Made by a program: the position numbers and the translations under genes. Positions 8,660 to 42,892 of a DNA stretch of 64,000 nt are shown piece after piece. Numbering within the stretch: position 1 is the stretch's first letter; the number at the start of each line of letters is the position of its first letter. The notes under the pieces are model-generated. The model saw nothing but the letters and a program-made list of their open reading frames with translations. It ran no database searches and was not told the DNA's origin. The DNA lies in IMG/VR virus record IMGVR_UViG_3300010354_000057, positions 24,109 to 88,108 of that record; one strand, 5' to 3'. Origin of the DNA: a virus.

Positions 8660-8695
8660 ATTAAAAAATAAATAACTTAACAGTACAATATAGTT

Positions 8696-28540: not shown

Positions 28541-29092
28541 ATGTCCTTTATAAAATTAAAAAATAAATTCTTTATTGGACATTATGATGTAATTTCTGGT
28601 AAGTATCAGTATGGTTTAAATACTTCTGATGGATTTTTTGGGATAAAGTATTCATATATTGATCTTTCAAATTATGATGATCTAATTGAAGTAGTTCCAG
28701 AATGTTATAGAGATAGATGTGCTATTTCTTTGATGAATTTAAATTGTAAAGTTCCACCTCATACTGATAGTGGAATTGAGGCAATTATTAATTTCTATGT
28801 TAAGAGTGATAATTGTAAAACTCATTTTTATGAGTTTAAAAATTCAACTCCTAAAACATTTAAATTACCAACACAAAAAGATGGATCTATATTTGATGAA
28901 GATGATTTACATGAAACTGGTAGTTTTATATCCGAAGATGGTGATGCTTATTTACTAGATGTATCAAAACCACATTCAGTAACTCCACTTCACTCTGGAC
29001 CTGTAAATAGAAAAGCAATATGCCTTCAACTGTTATATACTACTTTTGATGAAGCAAAACAAATGTTAGAACAATCTAATCAAATTTTATGA
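28541..29092 (+). CDS. 2OG-Fe(II) oxygenase-like protein
   Basis: PPHTD, PHSV, RKAI. Confidence 0.6.
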   Translation: MSFIKLKNKFFIGHYDVISGKYQYGLNTSDGFFGIKYSYIDLSNYDDLIEVVPECYRDRCAISLMNLNCKVPPHTDSGIEAIINFYVKSDNCKTHFYEFKNSTPKTFKLPTQKDGSIFDEDDLHETGSFISEDGDAYLLDVSKPHSVTPLHSGPVNRKAICLQLLYTTFDEAKQMLEQSNQIL

Positions 29093-29924
29093 ATTGGTTT
29101 TTAAATAAATCTTCTGATTCTTTTACAGACATCAGAGGATTTTTTGTATTATGAATATAATTTTTATGTGCTGGACACATACTACAAACTGATTCTGATT
29201 TTCTATTAAAGAATTCTATAATCTGATCTTGATTGCAATTAGGATCTAAAGGTTTATATTTTAAATAAGGATCCCATTTTTCTGACAACTTATATTTCTT
29301 TGCCATTAATGGTAAATATGCGAGAGGTGGACACTTCCAAATCATTCCTTCGTGTAATTGGAAACATGTTCCTTCCATAAAACAATTATTCCAACTTGCT
29401 TCAGCATTGTTATCTTCAAATGGTAATATATTTTCACCATATCCTTTGTAAATTTGTGTCCAATACTCGTGGGTTGTATTTACAGACACATTGATTCCAA
29501 GTTCATTTTTCCATTTTAAACATAATTTTAAATTGTCTTTTATCCTATTAATATAATCTTTTGATTTGCTGTGTATAGATAGTGATAGATTTATATTATT
29601 ATCTTTCAGTGCTTCTCCTAAGTTATTATGGGTGTGTAAGAAAAAACCATTAGTGGTTAATTTTATATAAGTATCTCCCCACATTTCTCTCGATAGATAC
29701 AGGAAATCAATCAAATTTTTATGTAATGTTGGTTCTCCACCAAGTAATATAAATTGTTTTGGTTGAATTCTATTATTCCAATTTCCCATCCACAATCTAC
29801 CTTCTTCAAGACTTATCATTCTAGAGTGTCCATGATTGGTAAAGTCAGAACAACTTTCACATGTTAAGTTGCAATTATGGGTGATGTGAAAGTCTATAAT
29901 TGGTACACTTACTTTTGAATGCAT
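29076..29924 (-). CDS. Radical SAM protein (paralogue of 23807-24628)
   Basis: CNLTCESC, GGEP, TNG, KCP, CSMC. Confidence 0.9.
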   Translation of the reverse strand: MHSKVSVPIIDFHITHNCNLTCESCSDFTNHGHSRMISLEEGRLWMGNWNNRIQPKQFILLGGEPTLHKNLIDFLYLSREMWGDTYIKLTTNGFFLHTHNNLGEALKDNNINLSLSIHSKSKDYINRIKDNLKLCLKWKNELGINVSVNTTHEYWTQIYKGYGENILPFEDNNAEASWNNCFMEGTCFQLHEGMIWKCPPLAYLPLMAKKYKLSEKWDPYLKYKPLDPNCNQDQIIEFFNRKSESVCSMCPAHKNYIHNTKNPLMSVKESEDLFKNQFIKFD

Positions 29925-29964
29925 CTTTATTATGATATAATCAGTATATAGTTAGAATATTAAT

Positions 29965-31167
29965 ATGAATAAACCTCATTGTATAGTTCCTTGGGTATAC
30001 TTTTTTGCTGAAGCAAATGGTGATGTTGTTCCATGCTGTGTGAATGATACATTTTTAGGAAATGTTCTAGAACAAGATTACAAAAAAATATGGAACTCTA
30101 GAAAAATGAATAGATTTAGGAGAAGTATGTTAACTCCAGGACCACTTCCAAAATCTTGTCAAATATGTATAGAGAATGAGTTATTAACTAGCGACTATAA
30201 CAACACTTATAATCTTAGAGAATACTATAACAATTTTTTTAAAGACACTTTTGATGAAATTCAATATATTACTAACACTGATGGATCTATAAAGGAAGAT
30301 AAGATAAAATTTAAATCTTTTGTTTTCAAAGTTAGTAATAAATGTAATTTTCAGTGTAGAATGTGTAATGCTAGTAATAGTTCTTTGATAGCTGGAGAAG
30401 TAATAGAAAATCCAAAATTTTATAGAAAATTTGTTGAGGAAAACATAGATGATTTGGAATTAATAGAATTTATTGGTGGGGAATCATTATTAATGAATGA
30501 AACTTATGAATTATTGGAATTTTTAATTCAAAGAAATAAACCACATCCATATCTACATTTTAATACAAATATGTCTATTTTAGGTTTGGGTGGTAAAAAT
30601 ATTTTGGAGTATTTAAATAAATTAAATAAAGATAAGATCGAAATAGTTGCAAGTATAGATGAGATTGACGAGAGATCAGAATATATAAGAAAAAATTGCA
30701 ATTGGAAAACAGTAGAAAAAAACTTACAATTAATTTCTAAACAAAGTTTTAAAACTAACACAAATATTGTTGCTAGTTGTTATAATGTGTTTAGACTTCC
30801 AAAAATAATAGAGCGTCTTGTTGAGATTGGATATATAAATCAAAGAAATAATTACCAAAACTTTATGTTTAATCCAGTTATTGGAGATTGTGATATTTCA
30901 TTGTTAAGTAAAAAATTTAGAAAAAAAATAGATGATGAAATTTATGATTTTCTTTTATATTATAATAAAAAATATAATGTTGATGTCACATATAAATTTA
31001 AAATAATTTTTAGTAAATTAAATCGTGAAGAACCAGAAAATATAGATGATATGAGATTAGAATTTCTAAAAGAAACTTCTAAAAAGGATAAAATAAGAGG
31101 TGAAAAATTATTAAAAGTAATTCCAGAACTTAGAGATATTATTGAATTAATGAGAAATGGAAACTGA
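29965..31167 (+). CDS. Radical SAM protein with N-terminal SPASM/twitch domain
   Basis: CIVPW..GDVVPCC..CQIC, then CNFQCRMC, GGE, NTN. Confidence 0.88.
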   Translation: MNKPHCIVPWVYFFAEANGDVVPCCVNDTFLGNVLEQDYKKIWNSRKMNRFRRSMLTPGPLPKSCQICIENELLTSDYNNTYNLREYYNNFFKDTFDEIQYITNTDGSIKEDKIKFKSFVFKVSNKCNFQCRMCNASNSSLIAGEVIENPKFYRKFVEENIDDLELIEFIGGESLLMNETYELLEFLIQRNKPHPYLHFNTNMSILGLGGKNILEYLNKLNKDKIEIVASIDEIDERSEYIRKNCNWKTVEKNLQLISKQSFKTNTNIVASCYNVFRLPKIIERLVEIGYINQRNNYQNFMFNPVIGDCDISLLSKKFRKKIDDEIYDFLLYYNKKYNVDVTYKFKIIFSKLNREEPENIDDMRLEFLKETSKKDKIRGEKLLKVIPELRDIIELMRNGN

Positions 31168-31654
31168 TATTTTATTGGAACTATCTGCGAAATATGCGAG
31201 ATACAATTTTCATAAAGAAGAAGAACCAGTTTTTAAAGCATTCTCTGAAACTTCTTCATTAATGTCCTTTGAAGAATATAAAAAATGGGTTAAGCAAAAG
31301 TTTGAAAATTATTATTCTATTATTTGCTTAATGTGGAAAGGTGATGAAAATAGAATTGAAACACAACTATTAGATGACTATACAAATTTGGTTGATCTTT
31401 ATTCTGAAAAAAATGAAAATGTTAATCCAATAATAGGTGAAGATATGAGAAATCTTAAAGATCTATTATCATTTGCAATATATTTTTGTGAATATAGAAT
31501 ACAGCATATTACATTTGATAAATTTTCTGAAGGAAAAAGTTATCAAGAAATATTATACGATACTCAGTATTTTAGGGAGAAAAAAGATTTATGGTTAACC
31601 CAATATGATAAAGTAATGGAAAAAATTCATGCCGATCTTACCCATTCAGCATAA
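31157..31654 (+). CDS. Hypothetical protein
   Basis: 165 aa, overlaps the radical SAM gene end. Confidence 0.6.
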   Translation: METDILLELSAKYARYNFHKEEEPVFKAFSETSSLMSFEEYKKWVKQKFENYYSIICLMWKGDENRIETQLLDDYTNLVDLYSEKNENVNPIIGEDMRNLKDLLSFAIYFCEYRIQHITFDKFSEGKSYQEILYDTQYFREKKDLWLTQYDKVMEKIHADLTHSA

Positions 31655-32148
31655 ATTCTATGGTTACTATCATATTTCAAATCTACACATGTAAATTTGA
31701 AATGTTCTGCAAACTTTAAATGTAAATCATAAGACCAAGGAAAAAAGTCTATTTTTTGACATTCTTTATTTTCATGATCTTGTCTACCTGGATTACATCT
31801 CCAGTAAATTCTTGATGTTGGTTTTAGTAACTTTACTACAGAACTAATTTCTGATATAATTTTGTCTCCTGGTCCAAAATTAATACTACCAAGACAAAAA
31901 GCAACATCAAATCTTTGATCTGTTTTGAATTTATCTATAGTAACTTTATAATCTGCTTCATCAAATGCGGGATCTATTCCAATTAAATTTTTAATTTTAC
32001 TTTTGAATGGATTTGGTCCACAACCAACATCTAAAACCCACTCATCATCCGCAATATTGTTTATTAAATTCCAACCAGAATATAAGTATTGATCTAAATT
32101 ACTGGTCCATTTTGTTGCAAAGTATTCATTCAATTGCTCTTGTTTCAT
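31627..32148 (-). CDS. Class I SAM-dependent methyltransferase
   Basis: VLDVGCG, GID, FDVAFCLGSINFG; start placed at MKQEQL (32148). Confidence 0.8.
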   Translation of the reverse strand: MKQEQLNEYFATKWTSNLDQYLYSGWNLINNIADDEWVLDVGCGPNPFKSKIKNLIGIDPAFDEADYKVTIDKFKTDQRFDVAFCLGSINFGPGDKIISEISSVVKLLKPTSRIYWRCNPGRQDHENKECQKIDFFPWSYDLHLKFAEHFKFTCVDLKYDSNHRIYAEWVRSA

Positions 32149-32725
32149 GAAATTACCTAAAAGAATATTTTTTACTGGAGTTCCTGGATCCCGTTGGAGT
32201 GGTATCGCACAGACGCTAGAAATGATGTCTGGTATGAATACCTCTGACCGCACACCTGAGCGTGAATACGTTCATCATAGTTATACTGGACACAAAGGAG
32301 CGTATTTTGGACCTGGCATGGAGTTTGAACCAATTCTTGATCCAGATTATATTGATCAGGCATGGATTGAACCTCAGGGGTGTAAACTTGTTAAAAGTCA
32401 TGAATGGTCTTATTATCTAGGTGAAATCCGTCAGAAGTTTCCAGACGACTGGATAATGATGGTTTATCGTCCTGATATGACTAGTTATGCATGGTGGCAT
32501 GAAGCTGGAGGTTTTCAAATACAATATCCTAATTATTCTCATTATAAAAATAGTAGTGTTATGCTATGTGAAATAATGCAACAAAACTCTTTTATTTTAA
32601 AATTTGGTATGGAAAATAAATGTAGTTGGGAATATTTTAATGAAGAATGGGTGCAGAAAAATTTTAATCAACAGATTATAGTGAATAATGTTCATAATGA
32701 CATTTTAGTAACTTTGATAAAATAA
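32147..32725 (+). CDS. P-loop/sulfotransferase-like protein
   Basis: IFFTGVPGSRWSG, VKSH, MVYRP resembling 5'PSB/3'PB elements. Confidence 0.5.
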   Translation: MKLPKRIFFTGVPGSRWSGIAQTLEMMSGMNTSDRTPEREYVHHSYTGHKGAYFGPGMEFEPILDPDYIDQAWIEPQGCKLVKSHEWSYYLGEIRQKFPDDWIMMVYRPDMTSYAWWHEAGGFQIQYPNYSHYKNSSVMLCEIMQQNSFILKFGMENKCSWEYFNEEWVQKNFNQQIIVNNVHNDILVTLIK

Positions 32726-32729
32726 GAAA

Positions 32730-33602
32730 ATGTCTTTAATAGGAATTCATAAATGGACTGACATAAATTGTCCAGAGTATAAAATATTTGATACGAACAA
32801 ACAGGATGTAGATATTTCTTATTATAACGATCTTGGATATGAAGCATTTGATCCAAATCAAAAAAATGTAATACTTATATTTTTTAAAAGTGGATCTGGA
32901 GGTTTGTTTTTAGGAAATTGTTTATCTCTAAGTGATAATTTTTTATGCAAATACAAGAATATAGATGAGAAATTAAATTTTTTAAAAGAAAGTATTAAAT
33001 CACAAGAAGTATTTTGGAATGATATTTACCTTAGTTCAATAGTAGACTATGGTGATGTTGAAAACACTGAAAAATATTCTTTAGTATATGATCATAATCC
33101 TAAAACCATAAAGTATCATTTTAAACATTGGAAAAATTTAAATGTTATATATTTTAAAAATCCAGATCTTTTTTGTAGAGTAAGAAGAGTTTTAAAGAAT
33201 TTTAATGGATATATTTCACATACTAGTTCAGAAAAAATAAAAAAAGTAGAAGTAAAAGAAATACCAAAATCAATTAAACAATATAGATCTCTTTCTAAAA
33301 AAGATCAAAATTTTTTAAAAGAGCTTTATTTTAGTGATGAAAAACTTTATACGTCTTCATTTTTAAATAACAAGAAACTATTTTACGTTTGGGACACAAA
33401 TTGGTATTTTTCTGAGGAAGATACTGTAACTCATATTAAAGAACTTTATGATCTTTTTAATTTATCTGGGTTTAATGAATATGCTATAAAAGAATATTAT
33501 AAAATATGGATTGAAAAGATAGATGATTTGAGAACTTTGGATTTTAATAGTATTAAACATTTATCCGAAGATCAAAATACATTTGATAGAAGTATTTTTT
33601 AA
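32730..33602 (+). CDS. Sulfotransferase-like/P-loop paralogue family member 1
   Basis: FFKSGSGGLFLGNCLSLS...VWDTNWY. Confidence 0.5.
   Translation: MSLIGIHKWTDINCPEYKIFDTNKQDVDISYYNDLGYEAFDPNQKNVILIFFKSGSGGLFLGNCLSLSDNFLCKYKNIDEKLNFLKESIKSQEVFWNDIYLSSIVDYGDVENTEKYSLVYDHNPKTIKYHFKHWKNLNVIYFKNPDLFCRVRRVLKNFNGYISHTSSEKIKKVEVKEIPKSIKQYRSLSKKDQNFLKELYFSDEKLYTSSFLNNKKLFYVWDTNWYFSEEDTVTHIKELYDLFNLSGFNEYAIKEYYKIWIEKIDDLRTLDFNSIKHLSEDQNTFDRSIF
33369..33458 (+). repeat. 90-bp exact repeat, copy A (identical to 35361-35450)
   Basis: Base-by-base comparison. Confidence 0.9.
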
Positions 33603-33603
33603 T

Positions 33604-33632
33604 TTGACACTAAATAGTTTTTTGATTATAAT
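33604..33632 (+). promoter_or_regulatory. Sigma70 promoter of ferritin-like gene
   Basis: TTGACA-N17-TATAAT, perfect. Confidence 0.8.
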
Positions 33633-33671
33633 AGATTTGTTATCATGATGATTTGAAATAAATCTTTATTT

Positions 33672-33679
33672 TATAAATA
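33672..33679 (+). promoter_or_regulatory. T4 late promoter
   Basis: TATAAATA exact consensus. Confidence 0.7.
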
Positions 33680-33716
33680 ATAATAAATTAAAGTAGGTTA
33701 CTACGGAGTTAAAAAA

Positions 33717-34391
33717 ATGCTTTCTGGAAAAGAATTTGTACAAAAAATCAAGAGAGAGAATGCTGAACTTTTTGAACAATCTCGCGTGAATGTTCGTCGT
33801 TTCTTTGCTTCAAACCCAAGCAAGGAGCACATGGTTGAGCATTTCCGTGGCCGCATGGTAAACGAAGCAATGAACATGAAAGCAATCGCTGCTGAGGTTG
33901 CTGCTGCTCCAGCATCTATGGATGTTACCGAACTTGAACTGCTGACTAAGCAAGCACAAGATGAGGCAAAGCACTTCCGTATGGTGAAGGAAGTTATTGA
34001 GCACATTTCTGGTGAGAAAGTAGATGTTGATGCTGCTTTCGCCGCAGAAGCTGCTGCTCCACAAGCAAAAGGTGCTACTCTACTCGATAAGTATGGTGCA
34101 TCTGAGGATCCTGCTGCTCTTGCTGCATATCAACTCGTCGCTGAGGGTCGTGCAGAGGCAGTCTGGAACGAAATGGCAGAGTGTGTAGAAGATGAATTCA
34201 TTTCTTCACGTTATGCTGCTATTGCTAAGGACGAAGGTTTCCACGCTAATATTGGTGGTTGGAAACTTGAGAAACTTGTAGAAGGTGCTGCTGACCTCCA
34301 GGAGCGCATTCTTGCAATGGTTGCTCAAATGCGTTCGGATCTTCTTGAAATCAGCAACAAGAACACCGCTGTTCCTTTTGCTGCTATCTGA
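33717..34391 (+). CDS. Ferritin-like di-iron carboxylate protein
   Basis: E...DEAKH...E...DEGFH ligand pattern; GGAG RBS. Confidence 0.8.
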   Translation: MLSGKEFVQKIKRENAELFEQSRVNVRRFFASNPSKEHMVEHFRGRMVNEAMNMKAIAAEVAAAPASMDVTELELLTKQAQDEAKHFRMVKEVIEHISGEKVDVDAAFAAEAAAPQAKGATLLDKYGASEDPAALAAYQLVAEGRAEAVWNEMAECVEDEFISSRYAAIAKDEGFHANIGGWKLEKLVEGAADLQERILAMVAQMRSDLLEISNKNTAVPFAAI

Positions 34392-34407
34392 TAGATAAAA
34401 ATATATT

Positions 34408-34662
34408 ATGAGTACTTTTGAAACAAGGCAACGTAAAGATAAAACTCGCATAATTAAGTGGGTTAGTGCCAGTACAATACTCATCGCAATGGTGTTTCAT
34501 GTATTGGGGCTAACCCCTTGGAATAGCATCCTACAATTAATTGGTGCATCTGGTTGGACTTATGTTGGATTTAAATGGAAGGAACGTTCAATCATAATGA
34601 ACTTCCTTCCACAATTTTTTATTATCATACCTGGATTATTTTATTTGTTTTTTATAAAATGA
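34408..34662 (+). CDS. Small membrane protein (about 3 TM)
   Basis: IKWVS..hydrophobic..PWN..G..GW..G..W.ERS. Confidence 0.65.
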   Translation: MSTFETRQRKDKTRIIKWVSASTILIAMVFHVLGLTPWNSILQLIGASGWTYVGFKWKERSIIMNFLPQFFIIIPGLFYLFFIK

Positions 34663-35615
34663 CTAAAGAGGTTGATGAATTAAAAAATTCTTTAGATTTT
34701 AGTAAAATTAGGATAGGTTCACATCGATGGAATGTTCAGTCTGGTAGAGACCTTGAATATATTGAATGGGATAGTCTTCCAGAAGATGTAGATGAACAGA
34801 GAGATAATCTATCAAGATATTTTTACGATCGTGATTATGAGAATGTTTTACTAATATTTTTTAAAAGTGGTGCTGGTGGATTATTTCTATCAAATTGTTT
34901 AGCATTGAGTGATAGTGTTGGTAGTATTTTTATAGACATAGAAGAAAAAATAAGATTTTTTAATAAGTACCTTGAATCTCAAAAAGTTTTTTGGAATGAT
35001 TGTTATATAAACAATACTTCTCCAGAAATTCATCAAAATAACAAAGAATATTTTAGAAAAAAATATCATTTTATTTACGAACATAATCCAAAATATATAA
35101 AAAGACATTTAAAGTTTTGGAGTAAATGTAACGTAATATACTTTACAAATCCAGATTTATTCTGTAAAATAAGGCAGTTATTAAAAAATATAGATGGTAA
35201 TCTAGGATATATTAGTTATGAACATGTTAAACCTGATTTAACTGGGTATTCTGTACCAAAAAGTTTTAAAGACTTTTTTAATCTTCCCAAAGAAAGACAA
35301 GAAATTTTAAAAAATGTCTACAAGAGTGAAGAAAATATAAATTCTTTTTGTTTTTCAAAGAACAAGAAACTATTTTACGTTTGGGACACAAATTGGTATT
35401 TTTCTGAGGAAGATACTGTAACTCATATTAAAGAACTTTATGATCTTTTTGGATTTAATGATTTTAACGCTGATGTAGTATCTCAGTTTTATAGAAAGTG
35501 GATTTCTAAATTAGATGAACTTTCCATAAGAGAAATTCCTGATAATATACAAGAGTTACTTAAAAATGAAAAAAATTTTGATAAATCTATAACCTCTTTT
35601 TGGGACTTATACTAA
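34659..35615 (+). CDS. Sulfotransferase-like/P-loop paralogue family member 2
   Basis: FFKSGAGGLFLSNCLALS; start at MTKEV. Confidence 0.5.
   Translation: MTKEVDELKNSLDFSKIRIGSHRWNVQSGRDLEYIEWDSLPEDVDEQRDNLSRYFYDRDYENVLLIFFKSGAGGLFLSNCLALSDSVGSIFIDIEEKIRFFNKYLESQKVFWNDCYINNTSPEIHQNNKEYFRKKYHFIYEHNPKYIKRHLKFWSKCNVIYFTNPDLFCKIRQLLKNIDGNLGYISYEHVKPDLTGYSVPKSFKDFFNLPKERQEILKNVYKSEENINSFCFSKNKKLFYVWDTNWYFSEEDTVTHIKELYDLFGFNDFNADVVSQFYRKWISKLDELSIREIPDNIQELLKNEKNFDKSITSFWDLY
35361..35467 (+). repeat. Exact repeat, copy B
   Basis: 35361-35450 = copy A; 35376-35467 = copy C. Confidence 0.9.
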
Positions 35616-36556
35616 TGAATAAAAAAATTAATTTAGGATCTCATAGGTGGAATCCTTTGTCAAATAGAAGTCTTGAATACATTAAATGGGATAAAGTTCC
35701 AGAAGATGTGCAATATCAAAGAAAAAACCTCAAAAGATCTTTTTATGATCGTGATTATGAAAAAGTTATAGTTTTGTTTTTTCAAAGTGGGTCTGGTGGG
35801 TTATTTTTAGCTAATTGTCTATCATTAAGTAATTCTGTTTGTAGTTCATTTGTACACGTAAATGAAAAAATACAATTACTTAATAATTATTTGAAGAGAC
35901 AGAAAGGAACTTTTTGGAATGATCTTTATATTAATAATTATTATCCAGAATTATTTCAAGAAGATGGAGAAAATAAAGAAGAGGGAATATGGCATACTAC
36001 AGATGGGTACTTCTTTATTCATGAACACGAAGCTAAAAATATACCAATTCATTTAGAATTTTGGAATAATGCTAATATGATATATTTCAAAAATCCAGAT
36101 CTTTTTTGTAAGATTAGGAAACTCCTTAAGAATATTGATGGTAGACTTGGGTATATGAGTTACGAACCACTTAAACAAACTAAAGAACAATATCCAATTC
36201 CATCGAGTTTTTCTGAATTTTTTAAATTATCTAAAAAAGAACAGGAAGAGTTAAAAGATGTATATAAAAGCGCAGACATATATACATCATCATTTTTAAA
36301 GAATAAAAAATTATTATACGTTTGGGACACAAATTGGTATTTTTCTGAGGAAGATACTGTAACTCATATTAAAGAACTTTATGATCTTTTTGGATTTAAT
36401 GATTTTAATAAAAAGGCAATAATTAACTATTACAATCAGTGGATCGAAAAATTGGATGAATTAAGTTCTAGACCAATACCTAATAATTTGCCAGAACTGA
36501 TTGGAAATAAAACTAATTATGATGTTCCTATAAGTAACTTTAAAGATTTAAAATGA
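35615..36556 (+). CDS. Sulfotransferase-like/P-loop paralogue family member 3
   Basis: FFQSGSGGLFLANCLSLS. Confidence 0.5.
   Translation: MNKKINLGSHRWNPLSNRSLEYIKWDKVPEDVQYQRKNLKRSFYDRDYEKVIVLFFQSGSGGLFLANCLSLSNSVCSSFVHVNEKIQLLNNYLKRQKGTFWNDLYINNYYPELFQEDGENKEEGIWHTTDGYFFIHEHEAKNIPIHLEFWNNANMIYFKNPDLFCKIRKLLKNIDGRLGYMSYEPLKQTKEQYPIPSSFSEFFKLSKKEQEELKDVYKSADIYTSSFLKNKKLLYVWDTNWYFSEEDTVTHIKELYDLFGFNDFNKKAIINYYNQWIEKLDELSSRPIPNNLPELIGNKTNYDVPISNFKDLK
36317..36408 (+). repeat. 92-bp exact repeat, copy C
   Basis: Identical to 35376-35467. Confidence 0.9.
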
Positions 36557-36581
36557 TTAGTAAAGTATTTTGGTGTTTCAA

Positions 36582-37208
36582 ATGAAAAAAATGGTAATTC
36601 TTACTGGACCTCAAGGATCTGGTAATCATCTATGGTCTAAGATATTTTCACTACATCCAAATGTATTTGGATGGAAAACTTTACTTGAAAACTACTGGGA
36701 AGCGCATAGATTTGCTGAACCATTTTGTGAATATTGGAAAGATATAACAAAACTCAAAGATTTTGATTGGTCTACACATGATTATTTTTTTACCAGTATT
36801 AGTGTTCCTCTGGGAATTAAAGAAACAAAATGGGAACCTAATATTATGAAGTTTTCTAATGAAGTAGAAAATTTGGGCATTAAAACTCAAATAGTTGTAG
36901 TTGGTAGAGATCAAAATATTCTGAGGCATCAGCAAAATCGCCTTAGAAAGGAGAGTACTCTTCCGCATTTCATGAAACAACTTCCAGAGTTTCCTAATCC
37001 TATATTTTTAAGTTATGAACTTCTTTATCTTTATAAGCAGGATTATTTGAAGTCTTTGGATGTTGGGATTCCAATCGCTTGGGATGATCCAAGAATTGAT
37101 GATATATTAACTAATGACCCTAATGATAAGTATGTTCATCATGTGGAAGAGTATTTTTTAGATAGATGTAATAGAACGGGAATTCCATTAAAACAGATAA
37201 ATGAGTAA
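36582..37208 (+). CDS. P-loop/sulfotransferase-like protein (paralogue of 39123-39776)
   Basis: ILTGPQGSGNHLWSK, GRD.NI...Q.R.R, SYE. Confidence 0.55.
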   Translation: MKKMVILTGPQGSGNHLWSKIFSLHPNVFGWKTLLENYWEAHRFAEPFCEYWKDITKLKDFDWSTHDYFFTSISVPLGIKETKWEPNIMKFSNEVENLGIKTQIVVVGRDQNILRHQQNRLRKESTLPHFMKQLPEFPNPIFLSYELLYLYKQDYLKSLDVGIPIAWDDPRIDDILTNDPNDKYVHHVEEYFLDRCNRTGIPLKQINE

Positions 37209-38049
37209 TTATGATCTAGATTTATCAAATTATATAAAATTACAACTCATAGAATCTACTGATGATGAGTATATAATTTATAAGCAAAGTGAAAATTTTT
37301 TTCCAGAAGGAAATTTTCACTTTGTTCATAAAAATTATGATAAGATTATTTTGGTTATATATCCCTTTGCTTCTGGTGGAAATTTTTTAATTAATTGTTT
37401 ATCGTTGAGTAACGATATTGCATCATCTCTTAAATCTTTATCAGACAAGATTAAATTTTTGGATAGTTCTCTTTCTTCTCAAGAAAAACACTGGGAAGAT
37501 TTTCTTATCAATGACAAATTTTTTACTTATAGTGATGTAAAGAGTAAAAAAAAGGAAAAATATTTTTTTATAAAAACGCATTTAGTAAATAAAATAAAAA
37601 ATCAGTCTACTAATCTTTCGGATACATCAAATAATATAAATTATCACTTAAAAAATTGGAAAAACTGTAAAAAAATAATATACATAAAAAACACAAGACT
37701 ATTTTGTAATCTTAGAAGATGTATTTTAAAAAAATCTGTGGAAAATGGATTATACGAAAAAATACCCTTACAAATTGGGGATTATTTTAAATTATCGGAT
37801 GATAAGAAAGAATTATTGAAGAAAATATACAACGATAAAATTCAAAAATATTCTTATTGTGATATTCAATCTAAAATTGAATATTATGTATGGGATGCTA
37901 ATTGGTATTTGTCAGAACAAGATACTATTTTTAACATTAGACAATTTTATGATGCTATTGGACTGTCTCAATTTAATGAAAAATATTTAAAACATTTTTA
38001 TAACTCTTGGATGAATACTATCATAAGACTTAGAAAAATTGATTTGTAA
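37201..38049 (+). CDS. Sulfotransferase-like/P-loop paralogue family member 4
   Basis: YPFASGGNFLINCLSLS, KTH, VWDANWY. Confidence 0.5.
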   Translation: MSNYDLDLSNYIKLQLIESTDDEYIIYKQSENFFPEGNFHFVHKNYDKIILVIYPFASGGNFLINCLSLSNDIASSLKSLSDKIKFLDSSLSSQEKHWEDFLINDKFFTYSDVKSKKKEKYFFIKTHLVNKIKNQSTNLSDTSNNINYHLKNWKNCKKIIYIKNTRLFCNLRRCILKKSVENGLYEKIPLQIGDYFKLSDDKKELLKKIYNDKIQKYSYCDIQSKIEYYVWDANWYLSEQDTIFNIRQFYDAIGLSQFNEKYLKHFYNSWMNTIIRLRKIDL

Positions 38050-38051
38050 TT

Positions 38052-38771
38052 ATGTGGCAACCATTCTTCCCTTCACTATATGATTTTAGTTATACTAATC
38101 ATAATGATAGAATAAAAAATTTTTATTCCACATTCAAATTTAAAAATAATAAAAATTCTATTATAGTTATTTTTGATGGAGGATCTGGTGGAGGATTTCT
38201 TGTCAATTGTTTATCTTTAAGTGATAAGATAGGATCTACTATTAATAATAAAATTGATTTTCTTTTAGGGAAATTAGATAATATGGGTGTTGTTTGGGAA
38301 GACTTTCATTTAAATAATATTATTGAAGATGGTAAATATTTTTTTATTTTAGATCACCCCTTTACCTCAAAAGTTCTCAAATATCACCTAAAAACGTGGA
38401 ATAGTAAAATAGTAATATTATTTAAAAATACTAATTATTTTTGTAAACTTAGAAGATGTGTTTGGAATGTTAATGGTGAAATATGTTATGATGAAGAATA
38501 TAAAGATGGAATTATTAAAACTGAAAATAAATTAGAGAGATACAATGATAAAAATCAAACATATTCTTTTTGTGATTTAGATAATAAGATTAATTTTTAT
38601 ATTTGGGATACTAATTGGTATTTTTCTTTTGAAGAAACTATTTTTAATTTAAATCAATTATATAATTTATTGGAATTGGGGAGTATTGACGAAAAAGCAA
38701 TAAAGAAGTATTATAATGTTTGGATAAAAAAAATTAATGATCTAAAAAATATATCTGTAAAACATGGATAA
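38052..38771 (+). CDS. Sulfotransferase-like/P-loop paralogue family member 5
   Basis: FDGGSGGGFLVNCLSLS, IWDTNWY. Confidence 0.5.
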   Translation: MWQPFFPSLYDFSYTNHNDRIKNFYSTFKFKNNKNSIIVIFDGGSGGGFLVNCLSLSDKIGSTINNKIDFLLGKLDNMGVVWEDFHLNNIIEDGKYFFILDHPFTSKVLKYHLKTWNSKIVILFKNTNYFCKLRRCVWNVNGEICYDEEYKDGIIKTENKLERYNDKNQTYSFCDLDNKINFYIWDTNWYFSFEETIFNLNQLYNLLELGSIDEKAIKKYYNVWIKKINDLKNISVKHG

Positions 38772-39120
38772 TTATTCAAAATTAATAAATGTATCTGAAA
38801 GTATAGATGCGACTGAAGAACAATTATTAAAATTGTCTAACCATAAACATTATGGAATAAGATATAGAGTTGCAAAAAATGTAAATACAACAGAAAGTAT
38901 TTTGTCTAATCTTGTTGATGACAATACTATATCTGTTAGATACGAAGTTGCTAGAAATAAAAATACAAATCTCAGGGATTTGGTAAAATTATTAAAGGAT
39001 AAAAGTTCTATAGTTGTTATTGCTGCCAAAAATAATTTAGAAGAAAGAACAAAAAAAGAAATAACAACTCCAGATACTATAGGAATAAGAAAAGTTAAAT
39101 TAATAACCGAACATTTTTGA
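38764..39120 (+). CDS. LRV/HEAT-like repeat protein
   Basis: Repeats of L..D....VR..VA.N.NT. Confidence 0.7.
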   Translation: MDNYSKLINVSESIDATEEQLLKLSNHKHYGIRYRVAKNVNTTESILSNLVDDNTISVRYEVARNKNTNLRDLVKLLKDKSSIVVIAAKNNLEERTKKEITTPDTIGIRKVKLITEHF

Positions 39121-39122
39121 AA

Positions 39123-39776
39123 ATGAAAAAACTTTTAATCATCACAGGACCACAAGGATCTGGTAATCATTTCTTTAGTAGAGTATTCAGTACACATCCA
39201 GAAGTTGGTGGATGGAAAAGTCTTCTTGAAAAGTATTGGGTTCCTAGTGATGAAGAATACTTTGCAAGATACTGGGTTTATCCTGAGGAACTTACGAAAA
39301 AAGATTTTGAAGGATATGATTATTGGTTGGCAAATGTAAGTTGCCCATTCTTTTATGATGGGGTCAGGTATGTCCCAAAGATTAAAGAAGTTGCAGAGAA
39401 AGCACAATCATTTGGAATTGATGTTCAGATTGCAATTATTGTAAGAGATCCGAATATCAATGGTCAGCAGCAACTGAGAGTTCGTGGAGAAATTACAATT
39501 CCTATTGCACAAGATTACTACTACAATACTCTTATTCCTGCAGGATTTAAAGTTCACTTCCTAGATAATGAGGCGTTTTTCTTACACAGAGGACATTATC
39601 TCAAATGGGTAAGTGAACTTTTAGATTTCCCTGTGGACTATAACAATCCTGATATTTTTAAGTTTATTACTGAAGATCCTAATAAAAAATATGTGAATTA
39701 TGTTGATGAATATTGGCTTGACAAAGAGGTGTGGGATGGGATAAGATCTAAGAAAGATAGGAATTTACATTCATGA
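39123..39776 (+). CDS. P-loop/sulfotransferase-like protein
   Basis: IITGPQGSGNHFFSR, VRDPNI. Confidence 0.55.
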   Translation: MKKLLIITGPQGSGNHFFSRVFSTHPEVGGWKSLLEKYWVPSDEEYFARYWVYPEELTKKDFEGYDYWLANVSCPFFYDGVRYVPKIKEVAEKAQSFGIDVQIAIIVRDPNINGQQQLRVRGEITIPIAQDYYYNTLIPAGFKVHFLDNEAFFLHRGHYLKWVSELLDFPVDYNNPDIFKFITEDPNKKYVNYVDEYWLDKEVWDGIRSKKDRNLHS

Positions 39777-39952
39777 ATACTAATCCTGAATTTCCATATG
39801 AAAATTTTCCTTACAAATTAGAATATAAAGATGGTAAAGAAAAAAGAGTTTGTTACTTTGAATGTAAAGAACATTTGGATAAATATCTAGTTCGTTATAA
39901 TATCAAAAAGAAGGATGCTGATATTCACATTAATAAAAAAAAGGTTAAGTGA
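39773..39952 (+). CDS. Small hypothetical protein, 59 aa (not in ORF track)
   Basis: MNTNPEFPYENFPYKLEYKDGKEKRVCYFECKEHLDKYL... Confidence 0.6.
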   Translation: MNTNPEFPYENFPYKLEYKDGKEKRVCYFECKEHLDKYLVRYNIKKKDADIHINKKKVK

Positions 39953-40025
39953 AATAAAAGATTACATTTATTTACGAAAATTGAGAAAAAGATTAAATAA
40001 GAAAGATCCCTTTATATACAAATGA
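39915..40025 (+). CDS. 36-aa basic micropeptide ending DPFIYK
   Basis: MLIFTLIKKRLSEIKDYIYLRKLRKRLNKKDPFIYK; ATGA overlap with carbamoyltransferase start. Confidence 0.6.
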   Translation: MLIFTLIKKRLSEIKDYIYLRKLRKRLNKKDPFIYK

Positions 40026-41446
40026 TAACCTGGGGAATTTCATCGGAAAGTCATAATGCAGCACTTTCAGTATTCGTAAGTGATAGACTTGTATTTGCAA
40101 GTGAAAGTGAGAGGTTTAGTGGTATTAAAAACGACCCATACTTAAATGATGGCATAATTAACTATGCACTTAAGTTTGGAAACCCTGAATTGGTCTGTTG
40201 GTATGAAAATCCGTATAAGAAAACACTTCGACAACTTCTTGCGGGACAGGGATGGATACAAAACGTCAAGAAGTATGTTGATGCTCCAATCAAGTATTAT
40301 GATCATCACTATACTCATGCTTGTGCTGGTTATTTCACCAGCAAGTTTGATGAATGTTGTGTGGTGGTTATTGATGCTATAGGAGAATTTCAAACACTCA
40401 CAATATGGGAAGCGAAAGGAAATAAACTAAAACTTAAATTTCAACGTAGATATCCACACAGTATAGGACTTTGGTACTCTGCAATGACCCAAAGATGTGG
40501 ATTAAAACCAAATGAAGAAGAATATATCCTCATGGGCATGTCTGCTTATGGGGATAAAAGAGTATGTGAAGATGCAATATATGATGATTTCATTGGATTT
40601 AGAACATCAACTTTTAAGAAAAATTTACATAAAGGATGTGAAGATTGGAGACCAAATATAAAAAACAATTTTCATATTGCTGCAGCAACTCAAAGCGTTT
40701 ATGAAACAATGTTTAGAGATGTTCTTCAGAGAGCATCTAATATTGTAAAAAGTAATAACTTAGTTCTTATGGGTGGATGCGCCTTAAATTGTGTTGCAAA
40801 TCCTATTGCATATTATTACTATGATAATGTGTGGATTATGCCTGCTCCTGGTGATAATGGATCTGCAATTGGTGCAGTTCTTGCACATAAGAAACATCAT
40901 ATTGATTGGCATGGACCATACTTGGGTTATCGCATTCAACCAGTTTCAACAAATGAAGAGATTGTTGATCATCTTTTAGAACATAAGTTGTGTGGACTTG
41001 CCAGAAATCGTGCAGAGTTTGGTCCTAGATCTTTAGGTAATCGTAGTTTACTCGCAGATCCTCGTGATCCTAATATTAAATCTGTTGTGAATGATATAAA
41101 ACAAAGGCAACAGTTTAGACCATTTGCACCAGTAATTATGGAAGAGTATGTTGAACAATATTTTAGAATGCCTATGAAAACATCTCCTTATATGCAATAT
41201 GCAGTGAGATGTAAACAGTCTAAAAATTTCCCTGCAATTGTCCATATAGATAAAACAAGTAGAGTTCAGACTGTAAATAAATCTCAGAATGTAGAACTTT
41301 ATAATCTTTTGAAGTTATGGTATGAAAAAACTGGTTGCCCAATGCTTTTGAATACAAGTTTAAATATTAAAGGAAAACCAATTGTTAATGATGAAAAAGA
41401 TTGTAAAGAATGGGAAGAAACATATGGAGTTAAAGTATTCTCATGA
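40022..41446 (+). CDS. Carbamoyltransferase (NodU/CmcH family)
   Basis: HNAA, ERFS, HH..HA, DAIGE, GGCALN, EFGPRSLGNRS, FRPFAP, LLNTSLN. Confidence 0.92.
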   Translation: MITWGISSESHNAALSVFVSDRLVFASESERFSGIKNDPYLNDGIINYALKFGNPELVCWYENPYKKTLRQLLAGQGWIQNVKKYVDAPIKYYDHHYTHACAGYFTSKFDECCVVVIDAIGEFQTLTIWEAKGNKLKLKFQRRYPHSIGLWYSAMTQRCGLKPNEEEYILMGMSAYGDKRVCEDAIYDDFIGFRTSTFKKNLHKGCEDWRPNIKNNFHIAAATQSVYETMFRDVLQRASNIVKSNNLVLMGGCALNCVANPIAYYYYDNVWIMPAPGDNGSAIGAVLAHKKHHIDWHGPYLGYRIQPVSTNEEIVDHLLEHKLCGLARNRAEFGPRSLGNRSLLADPRDPNIKSVVNDIKQRQQFRPFAPVIMEEYVEQYFRMPMKTSPYMQYAVRCKQSKNFPAIVHIDKTSRVQTVNKSQNVELYNLLKLWYEKTGCPMLLNTSLNIKGKPIVNDEKDCKEWEETYGVKVFS

Positions 41447-41652
41447 AATATTTTAAAGAAAATGATATTGTAGTGTATATTGGGTGTTCTCAAGAACAGA
41501 TAAATTGGGGATCTAATGATGATCCAAGAACAATACTTGTTGAAGGAAATGAATATGAAATAGAAGTTGTTGATATTCATTCTCAACATACTAAATTGAC
41601 ATTGAAAGGAATTCCTGGTAGATTTAATAGTGTCTGCTTTGATAAACTATGA
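41443..41652 (+). CDS. Hypothetical protein
   Basis: Coupled ORF. Confidence 0.6.
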   Translation: MKYFKENDIVVYIGCSQEQINWGSNDDPRTILVEGNEYEIEVVDIHSQHTKLTLKGIPGRFNSVCFDKL

Positions 41653-41792
41653 CAATTCGCACTCATGTTCAAAAAGATGGTACTATTTGGGAATGGGAAG
41701 AAACAAAGGAATTGAAAGAATGGATTTCCCTACAAATCGCTAAAAAAGCAATGGCACAATATGATGGTGCATTAAAGGAGCTTGCTGACTGA
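41649..41792 (+). CDS. Small hypothetical protein (47 aa)
   Basis: Translated by hand; coupled on both sides. Confidence 0.5.
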   Translation: MTIRTHVQKDGTIWEWEETKELKEWISLQIAKKAMAQYDGALKELAD

Positions 41793-41986
41793 TGATTGAT
41801 GATGCTTTTTATGTTGAGCAGAAAAAATGGGGAACTTGGCAATCTTATGATAAAGATGGTAATGGGTTAGTTACTTCTCTTACTGAAGAGCAATGTATAT
41901 CAGCAACCCGTTTTATTCTTAAAGGGAGACAAGAAGGTTTTATAGAATCAAAAGTCTATGATGGTGAAGTTGGTGGAAAACTCTAA
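41792..41986 (+). CDS. Hypothetical protein
   Basis: Cyanophage-type C-terminus YDGEVGGKL. Confidence 0.6.
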   Translation: MIDDAFYVEQKKWGTWQSYDKDGNGLVTSLTEEQCISATRFILKGRQEGFIESKVYDGEVGGKL

Positions 41987-42005
41987 TGTAAAGTAACTAT
42001 TCTTT

Positions 42006-42794
42006 ATGTCTACTTTTAAATGGATAAAAAACAAACAATTCTTATCAAAACCTAATACATATTGTATTCATAATCTTGGTGATAAACCATTATATGAAAA
42101 TATATATGAAAATAAAGAAAATATAAAGGGTGTTTGGGATTTTTGTACATCAGATTGTCAATCAAAATATGAAAAAGTGTTAGAATATAAACCAAAAAAT
42201 TGGTACTATAGAAATAATAAAGTTAAATATACTTTAAATTCTGAAGGTTATAGAACAAAAGAATTTGATGAAATTGATTGGAAAAATTCTATAGTAATGT
42301 TTGGGTGTTCTCATGTTTTTGGTACAGGTAATGATGATGATTTTACTATACCATCTTTGTTAGAAAATAAAGTAAAAATTCCCGTAATTAACATGGGAAT
42401 TAATGGTTCATCTATAAAATCTACGGCACATAATTCTTTTTCTTTGTACCATTCATACGAAACACCAAAAATGGTAATTTTTGGATGGACATATTTATCT
42501 AGAAGAGGTGAATATAGTGAAGATGGTATTAATGGAGATCATACTTATAGAAGTTTAGAAAATGCTACTGATAGTGTGTTAACAAACATGTTATTGAGTA
42601 ATTTAATAAAAACTATTTGGGTCAATAAGTGCCCAATATATGAATTTTCATTCTCTCAAAATACCTCAAAACTATTAGGTTGTGACTATTATAAAAATAT
42701 AGATTATGCGAGAGATGATGTTCATTATGGGATTAAAAGTCATCATATTATATCTGAAAAAATATATAATAAGATAAAAGATAACATAAAATGA
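42006..42794 (+). CDS. SGNH/GDSL-like protein
   Basis: NSEGYR..EF, FGCSHVFG, NMGINGSS, D..H. Confidence 0.65.
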   Translation: MSTFKWIKNKQFLSKPNTYCIHNLGDKPLYENIYENKENIKGVWDFCTSDCQSKYEKVLEYKPKNWYYRNNKVKYTLNSEGYRTKEFDEIDWKNSIVMFGCSHVFGTGNDDDFTIPSLLENKVKIPVINMGINGSSIKSTAHNSFSLYHSYETPKMVIFGWTYLSRRGEYSEDGINGDHTYRSLENATDSVLTNMLLSNLIKTIWVNKCPIYEFSFSQNTSKLLGCDYYKNIDYARDDVHYGIKSHHIISEKIYNKIKDNIK

Positions 42795-42892
42795 AAAAAA
42801 TAATTAATAAAATAAAGAAGTATTTTGAAAAAAGATACATGGAAAAATTAAAAAGAGATCTAATGAAAGAAGATCCATTTATATACAAGTGA
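42791..42892 (+). CDS. 33-aa basic micropeptide ending DPFIYK
   Basis: MKKIINKIKKYFEKRYMEKLKRDLMKEDPFIYK; ATGA overlap with SGNH stop. Confidence 0.65.
   Translation: MKKIINKIKKYFEKRYMEKLKRDLMKEDPFIYK

Follow-up and report, generated by a model that had tools for sequence, protein, structure and literature searches.

A conserved cassette of di-iron, methyltransferase-like and transferase-like genes in a gene island of a predicted T4-like cyanomyovirus

The gene island and its conserved core

We analysed a 64-kb stretch of viral DNA, called the window below, which corresponds to bases 24109-88108 of the 88-kb IMG/VR virus record IMGVR_UViG_3300010354_000057 (estimated completeness of the record, 42%). 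Our subject is a 13.8-kb island of about 21 genes in this window, which encodes a ferritin-like di-iron protein, a methyltransferase-like protein, three families of proteins with a glycine loop (A, B and C) and a number of other predicted enzymes and small proteins (Table 1). All open reading frames (ORFs) named in a preliminary description of this DNA were recovered at their positions, and the tight coupling reported there was found as well. Between the first radical S-adenosylmethionine (SAM) gene, rSAM1, and the gene for micropeptide 2 (mp33), 17 of the 22 junctions overlap or leave a gap of at most 4 nucleotides (nt); the largest gap, 114 nt, lies just upstream of the di-iron gene. By alignment, the glycine-loop proteins fall into three distinct families with one copy of C, two of B and five of A, the same copy numbers as had been given before. 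Overall, the preliminary description had recognised a real and under-described gene set. Its genes and their packing stand, but its boundary was set too wide and several of its enzyme labels (methyltransferase, SGNH, LRV and sulfotransferase-like) were too firm.

The gene content of the window is T4-like, with baseplate and tail genes, a helicase, an RNA ligase and two tRNAs, at a guanine-cytosine (GC) content of about 0.25-0.40. A psbA-type fragment opens the 88-kb record (Photo_RC, E 8e-11), and a complete 249-kb relative carries two Photo_RC genes (psbA and psbD). Because of these genes and the T4-like gene content, the virus is, as judged from its sequence, a T4-like cyanomyovirus of an uncultured lineage. 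Its tail protein is at most 38.5% identical to those of cultured cyanomyoviruses (225 records), its helicase is 58.9% identical to that of the freshwater Synechococcus phage S-SRM01, and no phage record was matched when the whole stretch was compared by megablast. A pelagiphage origin, which the low GC had prompted us to consider, was ruled out by the psbA/psbD matches and by the helicase match to S-SRM01.

IMG/VR was searched with the di-iron protein (80 of 129 relatives kept) and, independently, with a profile of B (at least 598 pattern matches; 80 of 577 relatives kept). ORFs were called in all loci and scored with hidden Markov models (HMMs) made from our own alignments, and merging of identical DNA reduced the 157 loci to 123 distinct contigs, of which we counted those with at least 3 kb of flank (n=61) and those with at least 5 kb (n=40). 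The di-iron gene, B and the methyltransferase-like gene were found jointly in 58 of the 61 and in 38 of the 40 contigs, with a median span of the core set of 4.2 kb. Taken singly, the di-iron gene was present in 60 of the 61 contigs, B in 61, the methyltransferase-like gene in 59, C in 42 and at least two B genes in 47, and the corresponding numbers for the 40 contigs were 39, 40, 39, 28 and 30; since the loci were retrieved through the di-iron gene and B, the presence of these two is by construction, and it is the other families and the reciprocal result that are informative.

The order of the core genes differs between lineages. In the clade of the window it is the methyltransferase-like gene (minus strand), C and the di-iron gene (both plus) and, further on, B1 and B2 (both plus). 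A second clade has two C genes, followed by the methyltransferase-like and di-iron genes (both plus) and by B2 and B1 (both minus). Elsewhere we found the methyltransferase-like gene (minus) with the di-iron gene (plus) and, further on, B and C (both plus); B next to the di-iron gene; and the di-iron gene, a cupin gene and B in a row. Because the proximity of the core genes persists through rearrangement and inversion, it argues for their functional coupling. The core is one of the most consistent gene neighbourhoods measurable here, and the co-occurrence elsewhere of the methyltransferase, GVPGSRW (C), ferritin-like and GPQGSGNH (B) genes, which the preliminary description had put forward as a check, was found.

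The same was not seen for the outer genes of the island. Among the 61 contigs, rSAM1 was found near the core in 2, rSAM2-like genes in 7, orf165 in 1, the HEAT-like gene in 2, the carbamoyltransferase gene in 5 and the SGNH-like gene in 2, all of which are lower bounds, as a flank of 3-5 kb may stop short of the distance at which these genes lie in the window. With peripheral genes near the core in only 1-7 of 61 contigs, the view that all of the roughly 21 genes serve one dedicated pathway did not hold. We read the stretch as a conserved cassette of enzyme genes to which individual lineages have added others, rather than as one pathway of 21 genes.

Some additions are found inside the core itself. 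The small protein described before as having three transmembrane segments could be identified as DUF6552 (PF20189, 50 bits, cut-off 27; a relative at locus L138 of our collection scores 39.8 bits). It occurs in 23 of the 61 contigs, and 17 of 18 family members lie within the module. Other lineages carry a Peptidase_C26/GATase gene (24 of 61 contigs; 22 of 25 members within the module; Pfam E 8.7e-13), which the module of the window itself does not have, or a Cupin_2 gene (12 of 61 contigs; 12 of 12 within the module; E 1.4e-9). Insertion of the GATase and cupin genes inside the module is as expected of a metabolic cassette. What borders the module depends on the lineage. One clade has very large ORFs there, along with the gene for a T4 neck protein, another has PhoH next to a lysozyme-like gene of the peptidoglycan-binding type, and the window has RNA ligase and 2-oxoglutarate (2OG) oxygenase genes. 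Hence there is no constant link between the core and structural genes.

With at least 598 stretches of the B family in IMG/VR, the core cassette ranks with the more frequent gene sets of aquatic T4-like cyanophages that lack an explanation. A search of 50,697 deposited phage records gave no match to the di-iron protein or to B2. There is no PHROG family for four of the six core genes, and most of them are likewise without a Pfam family. A description of the cassette was not found in the literature on cyanophage sulfotransferase or rubrerythrin, pelagimyophages, S-SRM01 or DUF2972, and our search returned nothing on DUF6552, DUF7468 or NF033640; DUF2972 was the only one of these families for which literature was found. 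This agrees with the earlier statement that no characterised phage pathway has this composition.

Table 1. Genes and promoter elements of the island, with positions in the window
Feature	Position	Strand	Description
rSAM1	29076..29924	-	radical SAM, 282 amino acids (aa), CX3CX2C; flanking accessory; PF04055 39.1 bits, phrog_13987
rSAM2	29965..31167	+	radical SAM, N-terminal twitch/SPASM, 400 aa; flanking accessory; NF033640 243.8 bits
orf165	31157..31654	+	no family match
methyltransferase-like (core)	31627..32148	-	173 aa from ATG at 32148; head-to-head with C, 2-nt overlap
C (GVPGSRWSG; core)	32147..32725	+	192 aa; sulfotransferase-like, sub-threshold
A1	32730..33602	+	family-A paralogue, 290 aa, GC 0.23
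promoter region of di-iron gene	33604..33679	+	perfect TTGACA-N17-TATAAT at 33604-33632; TATAAATA at 33672-33679
ferritin-like di-iron protein (core)	33717..34391	+	224 aa, GC 0.46
DUF6552 small membrane protein (core in part of the lineages)	34408..34662	+	84 aa; PF20189 50 bits
A2	34659..35615	+	family-A paralogue; likely start 34659, longest ORF from 34575
A3	35600..36556	+	family-A paralogue, 318 aa
B1 (TGPQGSGNH; core)	36570..37208	+	212 aa
A4	37201..38049	+	family-A paralogue, 282 aa
A5	38052..38771	+	family-A paralogue, 239 aa
HEAT/LRV-like repeat protein	38764..39120	+	118 aa; accessory; HEAT E 0.0011, below cut-off; phrog_20647
B2 (TGPQGSGNH; core)	39117..39776	+	219 aa
p59	39773..39952	+	small protein common in phages; phrog_1609 E 2.7e-13
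micropeptide 1	39915..40025	+	36 aa, basic, C-terminal DPFIYK; ATAAATA box at 39879
NodU/CmcH-type carbamoyltransferase	40022..41446	+	474 aa; accessory; PF16861 177 bits, PF02543 125 bits, phrog_1601 E 3e-100
p69, p47, DUF7468 (three small ORFs)	41443..41986	+	phrog_3426; PF24272 85 bits
SGNH/GDSL-like protein	42006..42794	+	262 aa; accessory; Lipase_GDSL E 0.015, below cut-off
micropeptide 2 (mp33)	42791..42892	+	33 aa, C-terminal DPFIYK

The core proteins, the A paralogues and the accessory neighbours

The di-iron protein is the most conserved member of the module, with 72-97% identity across lineages compared to 30-66% for its neighbours. Its homologues form 2278 clusters at 90% identity (E<=0.001) from marine and freshwater sources, and the JGI labels are 'rubrerythrin' and 'PaaA'. 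The putative iron ligands E50, E83xxH86, E143 and E173xxH176 are invariant in all 14 homologues aligned, down to 65% identity. The preliminary description had called this a ferritin-like di-iron protein, and the E, ExxH, E, ExxH ligand set agrees with it, but no curated family model was matched above its cut-off (Ferritin_2, E 0.043, 14.4 bits against 24.7; R2-like oxidase, E 0.017, 14.4 bits against 194). Eight of the nine weak matches of the di-iron profile to PDB sequences were phycocyanin beta chains (E 0.07-0.7, about 115 residues), which is probably compositional (Ala-rich helices), if a curiosity for a cyanophage.

The di-iron gene has its own predicted promoters. A perfect sigma-70 consensus, TTGACA-N17-TATAAT, precedes it and is one of two perfect sites in 15 kb. 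The sequence TATAAATA, which occurs once in the 64-kb window where 12.8 copies would be expected, ends 37 nt upstream of its ATG. The shorter box ATAAATA is present in 12 copies, compared to 47 expected, of which those on the plus strand lie at 8668, 9898, 13470, 24628, 33673, 39879, 44103, 52295 and 53072. Eight of these nine boxes lie about 14-38 nt upstream of listed ORF starts, and the ORFs that they precede include a 1961-aa fibre gene, the di-iron gene and the micropeptide/carbamoyltransferase unit, so that the boxes look like a usable late-promoter map for this phage. Because a sigma-70 consensus and a late-type box stand directly upstream, the di-iron gene is predicted to be set up for both early and late transcription.

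For the methyltransferase-like protein, the earlier class I assignment has to be worded with more caution. Residues D40, G42, C43, G44, G57, D59 and P60 are invariant in 32 sequences and give a VLDVGCG / GIDP pattern, in which motif I (D/E-x-G-x-G) and the acidic residue at the end of strand 2 of class I methyltransferases would be placed. No Pfam, NCBIfam or PHROG family was matched, and the profile found class I methyltransferases in the PDB with weak scores only (E 0.11-0.9).

Proteins A, B and C had all been described as P-loop or sulfotransferase-like. Among relatives of C, 6 of 18 matched Sulfotransfer_3 below threshold (best E 0.0016). In a six-frame search, the same model found both C paralogues in two of five related records (E 1.2e-4 and about 0.01; at most 18.4 bits against a cut-off of 27) and had no match in the 88-kb record itself. 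In the alignment of 28 B sequences, 39 columns are invariant. The named clusters of the ESM Atlas that come closest to B2 are sulfotransferase families (0.94; 177 and 168 shared features), a lead from a language model, while in Pfam none of the 28 B members matched a sulfotransferase family at E<=1, scattered chance matches being all that was seen. Fused or longer forms of B were not found, which is weak evidence. By eye, all three families have a strand, a glycine loop and a helix, about 60-75 residues further on a conserved His or Ser-x-Pro, and another 25-35 residues later a strand followed by R/K-N/D-P/x...Q/R. We take this layout to resemble the 5'-phosphosulfate-binding (5'-PSB) loop, the catalytic base and the 3'-phosphate-binding (3'-PB) region of sulfotransferases. 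As far as sequence can tell, we regard the sulfotransferase identity of C and B as weakly supported and that of family A as unsupported.

B1 orthologues of the second clade (L046, L068, L069, L074, L075, L079, L085 and others) have a C-terminal extension of 20-70 residues with a Cys-Cys pair (...CC, CCP, CCGD...C-H-C), which may be metal- or lipid-related. B1 of the window has no such extension.

Family A shows a different distribution. The five copies are 33-60% identical to A3 (as far as the other four are concerned), and in the 88-kb record all five lie within the core island. A single copy, placed between B1 and B2, was found in the complete 249-kb relative, and no copy in four second-clade records (55-66% complete). 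Of the 61 contigs, 14 carry family A (0 copies in 47, 1 in 8, 2 in 4, 3 in 1 and 5 in 1). An exhaustive HMMER search returned 669 representatives at 50% identity (E<=0.001), 484 of them at E<=1e-10, and a word-indexed homologue search gave 88 matches, all of which lack both a Pfam domain and an informative name. Queries with three distant members led to 0, 0 and 1 viral loci, and in that one A abuts B. In two sets of A members, 0 of 35 and 0 of 76 matched a sulfotransferase family in Pfam, again with scattered chance matches only. In the ESM Atlas, DUF2972 is the named cluster closest to A1 (0.94, 178 shared features); the DUF2972 HMM (PF11186) had no match in the 88-kb record at E<=10, nor among the 35 or 76 A members.

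The conserved polar residues of family A (S, K, D, H, N and R) suggest that these proteins are enzyme-like. The composition of the island is split: the di-iron gene has a GC content of 0.46, C, B1, B2 and DUF6552 have 0.32-0.34 and the methyltransferase-like gene 0.29, compared to 0.22-0.27 for the A paralogues. Since the A genes are markedly AT-richer than the core genes, with their 0.29-0.46, their composition fits later, fast-evolving and lineage-specific additions. For A2, the N-terminus of the longest ORF (34575-34658) comes from reading the 3' end of DUF6552 in a different frame, and similar 'conserved' N-termini occur in related loci; translation of A2 probably begins with the ATG at 34659, which shares bases with the stop codon of DUF6552. 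At L089 (15883-17250), a 455-aa A gene with apparently two A domains in tandem lies downstream of a carbamoyltransferase gene, outside the core.

Around the core, the two radical SAM proteins of the preliminary description were verified by PF04055 (39.1 bits for rSAM1 and 38.8 for rSAM2, cut-off 29.5), with CNLTCESC and CNFQCRMC visible in the translations. rSAM2 also matches NF033640 N_Twi_rSAM (243.8 bits against 170; model positions 3-397 of 398) and SPASM (49.9 bits, residues 6-68), and rSAM2-like genes near the core are often found as a tandem pair after B2. The carbamoyltransferase is above the cut-offs of Carbam_trans_N (125.3 bits) and Carbam_trans_C (177.1 bits). It belongs to the NodU/CmcH family as proposed, but it is not NodU proper, scoring 142.3 bits against the cut-off of 1000 of the NodU equivalog NF041651. 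The label 'SGNH' had to be given up as a firm assignment (Lipase_GDSL, E 0.015, 15.9 bits against 23.6; GCSH, GING and DDVH seen by eye only), and so had 'LRV repeat', for which we found a sub-threshold HEAT match (E 0.0011). orf165 matched no family in Pfam, PHROG or NCBIfam. The two related micropeptides were found as described, both ending in DPFIYK. In the window they bracket the block from the carbamoyltransferase to the SGNH-like gene, and basic DPFIYK micropeptides of 33-36 aa occur in one copy each in three related contigs (L008/L088, L009/L089/L091 and L010/L090). The genes for the radical SAM proteins, the carbamoyltransferase and the SGNH-like and HEAT-like proteins, as well as the small ORFs, are common neighbours of an accessory kind, with no obligate link to the core. 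Further downstream in the window, an ORF of 403 aa (46490-47701) matches a ferrochelatase PHROG over residues 4-184 and a 2OG-Fe(II) oxygenase PHROG over residues 209-402, which suggests a fusion.

Bacterial copies and possible roles of the core

One genome per bacterial species was scanned with the B profile. This gave six loci, three of them on short contigs of metagenome-assembled genomes (MAGs) that may be viral. The other three are on the chromosome of Massilia atriviolacea, on a Janthinobacterium contig and on a 1.8-Mb Bacteriovorax MAG contig. The two Oxalobacteraceae, Massilia and Janthinobacterium, share a syntenic island at the host GC of 0.60-0.63, in which genes for a binding protein, a permease, an ATP-binding cassette (ABC) ATPase, the methyltransferase and C come first. 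Next stand a Sulfatase-family gene (E 8.5e-19) and a short ORF in which two H-x-T/S motifs were seen by eye, and then the di-iron gene, a cupin gene and B. The Bacteriovorax locus has C, B, ATPase, permease, binding protein and methyltransferase genes, after which, by eye, a B12-type radical SAM gene and two further methyltransferase genes are found; this locus has no di-iron gene.

An NMT1/SsuA-type binding protein thus stands at the core in all three genomes (E 5.9e-18 to 1.2e-32), together with a permease and an ABC ATPase, and in two of the three a Sulfatase-family gene is found beside it. We rejected a role of the ABC system as a polysaccharide exporter, as ABC2_membrane (PF01061) had no match at the module loci of the three genomes. 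The bacterial context favours a small imported substrate, and the sulfatase and uptake genes are a clue to sulfate-ester chemistry that is independent of sequence similarity. Because the bacterial core adjoins NMT1-type ABC uptake and a sulfatase, a small imported molecule is at least as likely a substrate as a glycan. The presence of the core set in a cultured bacterium with a complete genome (M. atriviolacea) also offers a practical handle.

Two further observations concern the surroundings of the bacterial copies. The Bacteriovorax locus (L174, flanks at 8008-9308 and 13696-16767) has on one side, by eye, genes for a MerR-like regulator, a glyoxalase-like protein whose tail is Cys-rich and an ArsC/LMW-phosphatase-like protein, and on the other the B12-type radical SAM and the two further methyltransferases; these flanks could point to metalloid or other methylation chemistry. 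A fusion of a glutamine cyclotransferase domain with the C-terminal domain of a 5'-nucleotidase (L170, 6220-7878) lies within the Massilia island and is absent from that of Janthinobacterium.

With a confidence that falls just short of even, we propose that the core is an oxygenase, methyltransferase and sulfotransferase-like cassette, made up of the methyltransferase-like protein, C, the di-iron protein, DUF6552 and the paralogue pair B1/B2, and that the A paralogues are add-ons and the remaining genes accessory neighbours. The catalytic steps, donor, acceptor and partnerships that we envisage are as follows. The di-iron protein, with its own early and late promoters, would oxidise, probably hydroxylate, an acceptor of host origin, for which we consider a small molecule more likely than a glycan. 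The methyltransferase would then cap the new function by methyl transfer, and C, B1 and B2, all presumably of sulfotransferase fold and the last two probably working as a pair, would cap it by transfer of a sulfo- or related ester group from a nucleotide supplied by the host. The five AT-rich A paralogues would be enzyme-like add-ons that work with B and vary what is modified.

Somewhat more tentatively, the core and family A may represent an undescribed and very abundant cyanophage pathway that would equip either a metabolite of the host or the virion with a group that is oxidised, methylated and sulfated (or esterified in another way). If true, this would add a new branch of the sulfotransferase fold and a fast-diversifying family A, and it would be a chemical modification not known in any cultured phage. 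The conservation of 72-97% and the predicted strong expression of an oxygenase, next to proteins for methyl and ester transfer, suggest a defined chemical step in infected picocyanobacteria, which would bear on host metabolism, on phage-host recognition or on both.

Several results weigh against this proposal, in addition to the retrieval of the loci through the di-iron gene and B. The E-ExxH-E-ExxH set is equally typical of non-enzymatic ferroxidase centres, and the di-iron profile found nothing significant among PDB sequences. C of the window had no sulfotransferase match in Pfam at E<=1, and neither had B1 or B2. Profile searches of PDB sequences with A (two alignments), B2, C and the GATase gave nothing significant either. 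Over all PDB searches, those with the di-iron protein and the methyltransferase-like protein included, the best matches besides the phycocyanin chains were a designed P-loop protein (E 0.37), a homologue of VlmB (E 0.067) and the 'Kinase' 8t8v (E 0.034, over WDxNWY of A). When A, B and C were compared with each other by hhalign, the matches were weak (about 7-33% probability; 1-13% for A against B or C) and confined to the glycine loop (A-B and B-C) or to the histidine-bearing strand (A-C). Sulfotransferases carry Lys or Arg at a loop position at which B has Gln and the A proteins of the window have Leu, Asn or Gly. No APS (adenosine 5'-phosphosulfate) kinase was found in five related records, one complete genome among them, so that a nucleotide donor would have to come from the host. 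Finally, the surroundings of the core in one viral clade, where it is found between large ORFs and the gene for a neck protein, would be in keeping with a target on the virion.

A virion target was also part of the preliminary description, which had taken all of the roughly 21 genes as one pathway that decorates a glycan or protein of the virion, or the host surface, in the manner of Nod factors, by sulfo-, methyl- and carbamoyl transfer and an SGNH esterase. We consider this unlikely. The genes are tightly packed and co-directional, 6 of the 123 contigs have the carbamoyltransferase gene at a distance of a few kb from the core, including the distant lineages L146, L159 and L160, and the di-iron gene and the micropeptide/carbamoyltransferase unit have late-type boxes like that of the 1961-aa fibre gene. 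The position of the core between very large ORFs and the neck-protein gene in one clade points in the same direction, and predicted operons with a hydroxylase, a sulfotransferase and a methyltransferase are described in one study as acting on tail-collar or collagen-like proteins (PMC2938197). Against this stand the rarity of the peripheral genes near the core, the position of the core relative to structural genes, which varies by lineage, and the bacterial copies, which lie next to an uptake ABC system and a sulfatase and have no ABC-2 polysaccharide exporter at their loci. Pfam and PHROG scans revealed no glycosyltransferase in the stretch. The analogy to glycan decoration by NodH/S/U/Z thus found no direct support, and of the earlier interpretation it is the co-clustering core that remains, not the wider pathway or the glycan.

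The bacterial context raises an alternative of its own, in which the core would be an auxiliary sulfur-metabolism cassette that breaks down or re-routes a sulfate ester or sulfonate and so scavenges sulfur during infection. Sulfate-ester uptake and arylsulfatase (ats) loci of Pseudomonas resemble the surroundings of the bacterial core, with its NMT1/SsuA-type transport genes in three of three genomes and its sulfatase in two of three, and an oxygenase together with a cupin would fit oxidative desulfonation. However, the phage copies are without transporter and sulfatase, and a route that scavenges sulfur would not be expected to include a methyltransferase and two or three transferase-like proteins. 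Nitrate, thiamine precursors and other compounds are also taken up with the help of NMT1-type binding proteins, and Massilia and Janthinobacterium are closely related, which leaves only two independent contexts. Scavenging of sulfur therefore appears improbable to us.

It could also be argued that there is no pathway at all and that the ferritin-like protein is a stand-alone iron or oxidative-stress protein, surrounded by passengers of a hypervariable island. This would explain why it is so much more conserved than its neighbours and has promoters and a composition of its own, and its ligand set fits a ferroxidase centre. Yet the di-iron gene, B and the methyltransferase-like gene stay together in 58 of 61 contigs despite inversions and reshuffling, and they are also found together in the two related Oxalobacteraceae chromosomes, although Bacteriovorax has no di-iron gene. 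Because this linkage pattern is difficult to account for unless the genes are functionally coupled, the absence of any pathway is, in our view, quite improbable.

A relationship to the O-methyl phosphoramidate (MeOPN) system of Campylobacter, in which a nucleotide-activated phosphoramidate-like group would be made, transferred by the DUF2972-like family A and methylated, is very improbable as well. It is suggested by DUF2972 as the nearest named cluster of A1, by the methyltransferase and by the Peptidase_C26/GATase gene in the module of other lineages, which we take to be of the class of Cj1417. However, the DUF2972 HMM matched neither the 88-kb record nor the A alignments, and APS_kinase, PPDK_N and NTP_transf_3, which presumably correspond to Cj1415, Cj1418 and Cj1416, were each found in none of five related records (complete genomes among these: 1, 2 and 2, respectively). 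Moreover, the module of the window has no GATase, and MeOPN synthesis is not known to involve a di-iron enzyme. In the MeOPN transferases Cj1421 and Cj1422, the C-terminus is made up of DUF2972 (PMC5808241).

Maturation of the DPFIYK micropeptides in the manner of ribosomally synthesised and post-translationally modified peptides, by radical SAM/SPASM-type enzymes and transferases, is hardly credible: there are two radical SAM proteins, one with a SPASM/twitch domain, and two conserved basic micropeptides with a common C-terminal motif, but the micropeptides travel with the carbamoyltransferase and not with the radical SAM genes, which are near the core in only 2-7 of 61 contigs and match peptide maturases weakly (E 1e-4 or worse), and no recognisable leader/core architecture, peptidase or exporter was seen.

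Comparison with known systems

The window shares with the Nod-factor genes NodH/NodS/NodU the combination of a sulfotransferase-like protein, a methyltransferase and a NodU/CmcH-family carbamoyltransferase in one stretch. It differs in that its carbamoyltransferase is far below the NodU equivalog and near the core in only 5 of 61 contigs, and in that no chitin-oligomer synthesis genes and no glycosyltransferase were seen. The MeOPN genes Cj1415-Cj1422 of Campylobacter jejuni likewise combine a methyltransferase, P-loop proteins and transferase paralogues in variable number, and the GATase-like hydrolase of other lineages of the module has its counterpart there. The differences are the lack of a DUF2972 match, kinase and cytidylyltransferase domains that were not found in the five records, and the di-iron enzyme, which the MeOPN system is not known to have.

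The ats/ssu loci for sulfate esters and sulfonates resemble the bacterial core in its position beside an NMT1/SsuA-type binding protein, permease, ATPase and sulfatase. They are not known to include a di-iron protein, a methyltransferase or any of A, B and C, and the phage copies of the core have neither transporter nor sulfatase.

Iyer, Abhiman, de Souza and Aravind (2010) predicted bacterial operons with a hydroxylase, a sulfotransferase and a methyltransferase (PMC2938197). In these operons, the oxygenase is predicted to make a hydroxyl group that is then sulfated or methylated, as we propose for the core, and some of the operons are linked to phage tail-collar-type proteins. They use 2OG/Fe(II) dioxygenases, recognisable sulfotransferases and often a PAPS (3'-phosphoadenosine 5'-phosphosulfate) synthetase, in contrast to the ferritin-like di-iron protein of the window, its transferase-like proteins below every threshold and the five related records in which no APS kinase was found.

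Finally, the hypervariable islands of cyanomyoviruses contain genes such as the carbamoyltransferase of PHROG 1601 and the 2OG-Fe(II) oxygenase of PHROG 61. The window stands apart from them in its core, in which four of the six genes are without a PHROG family and two without a match in deposited phage records, while its flanks are of this ordinary kind.

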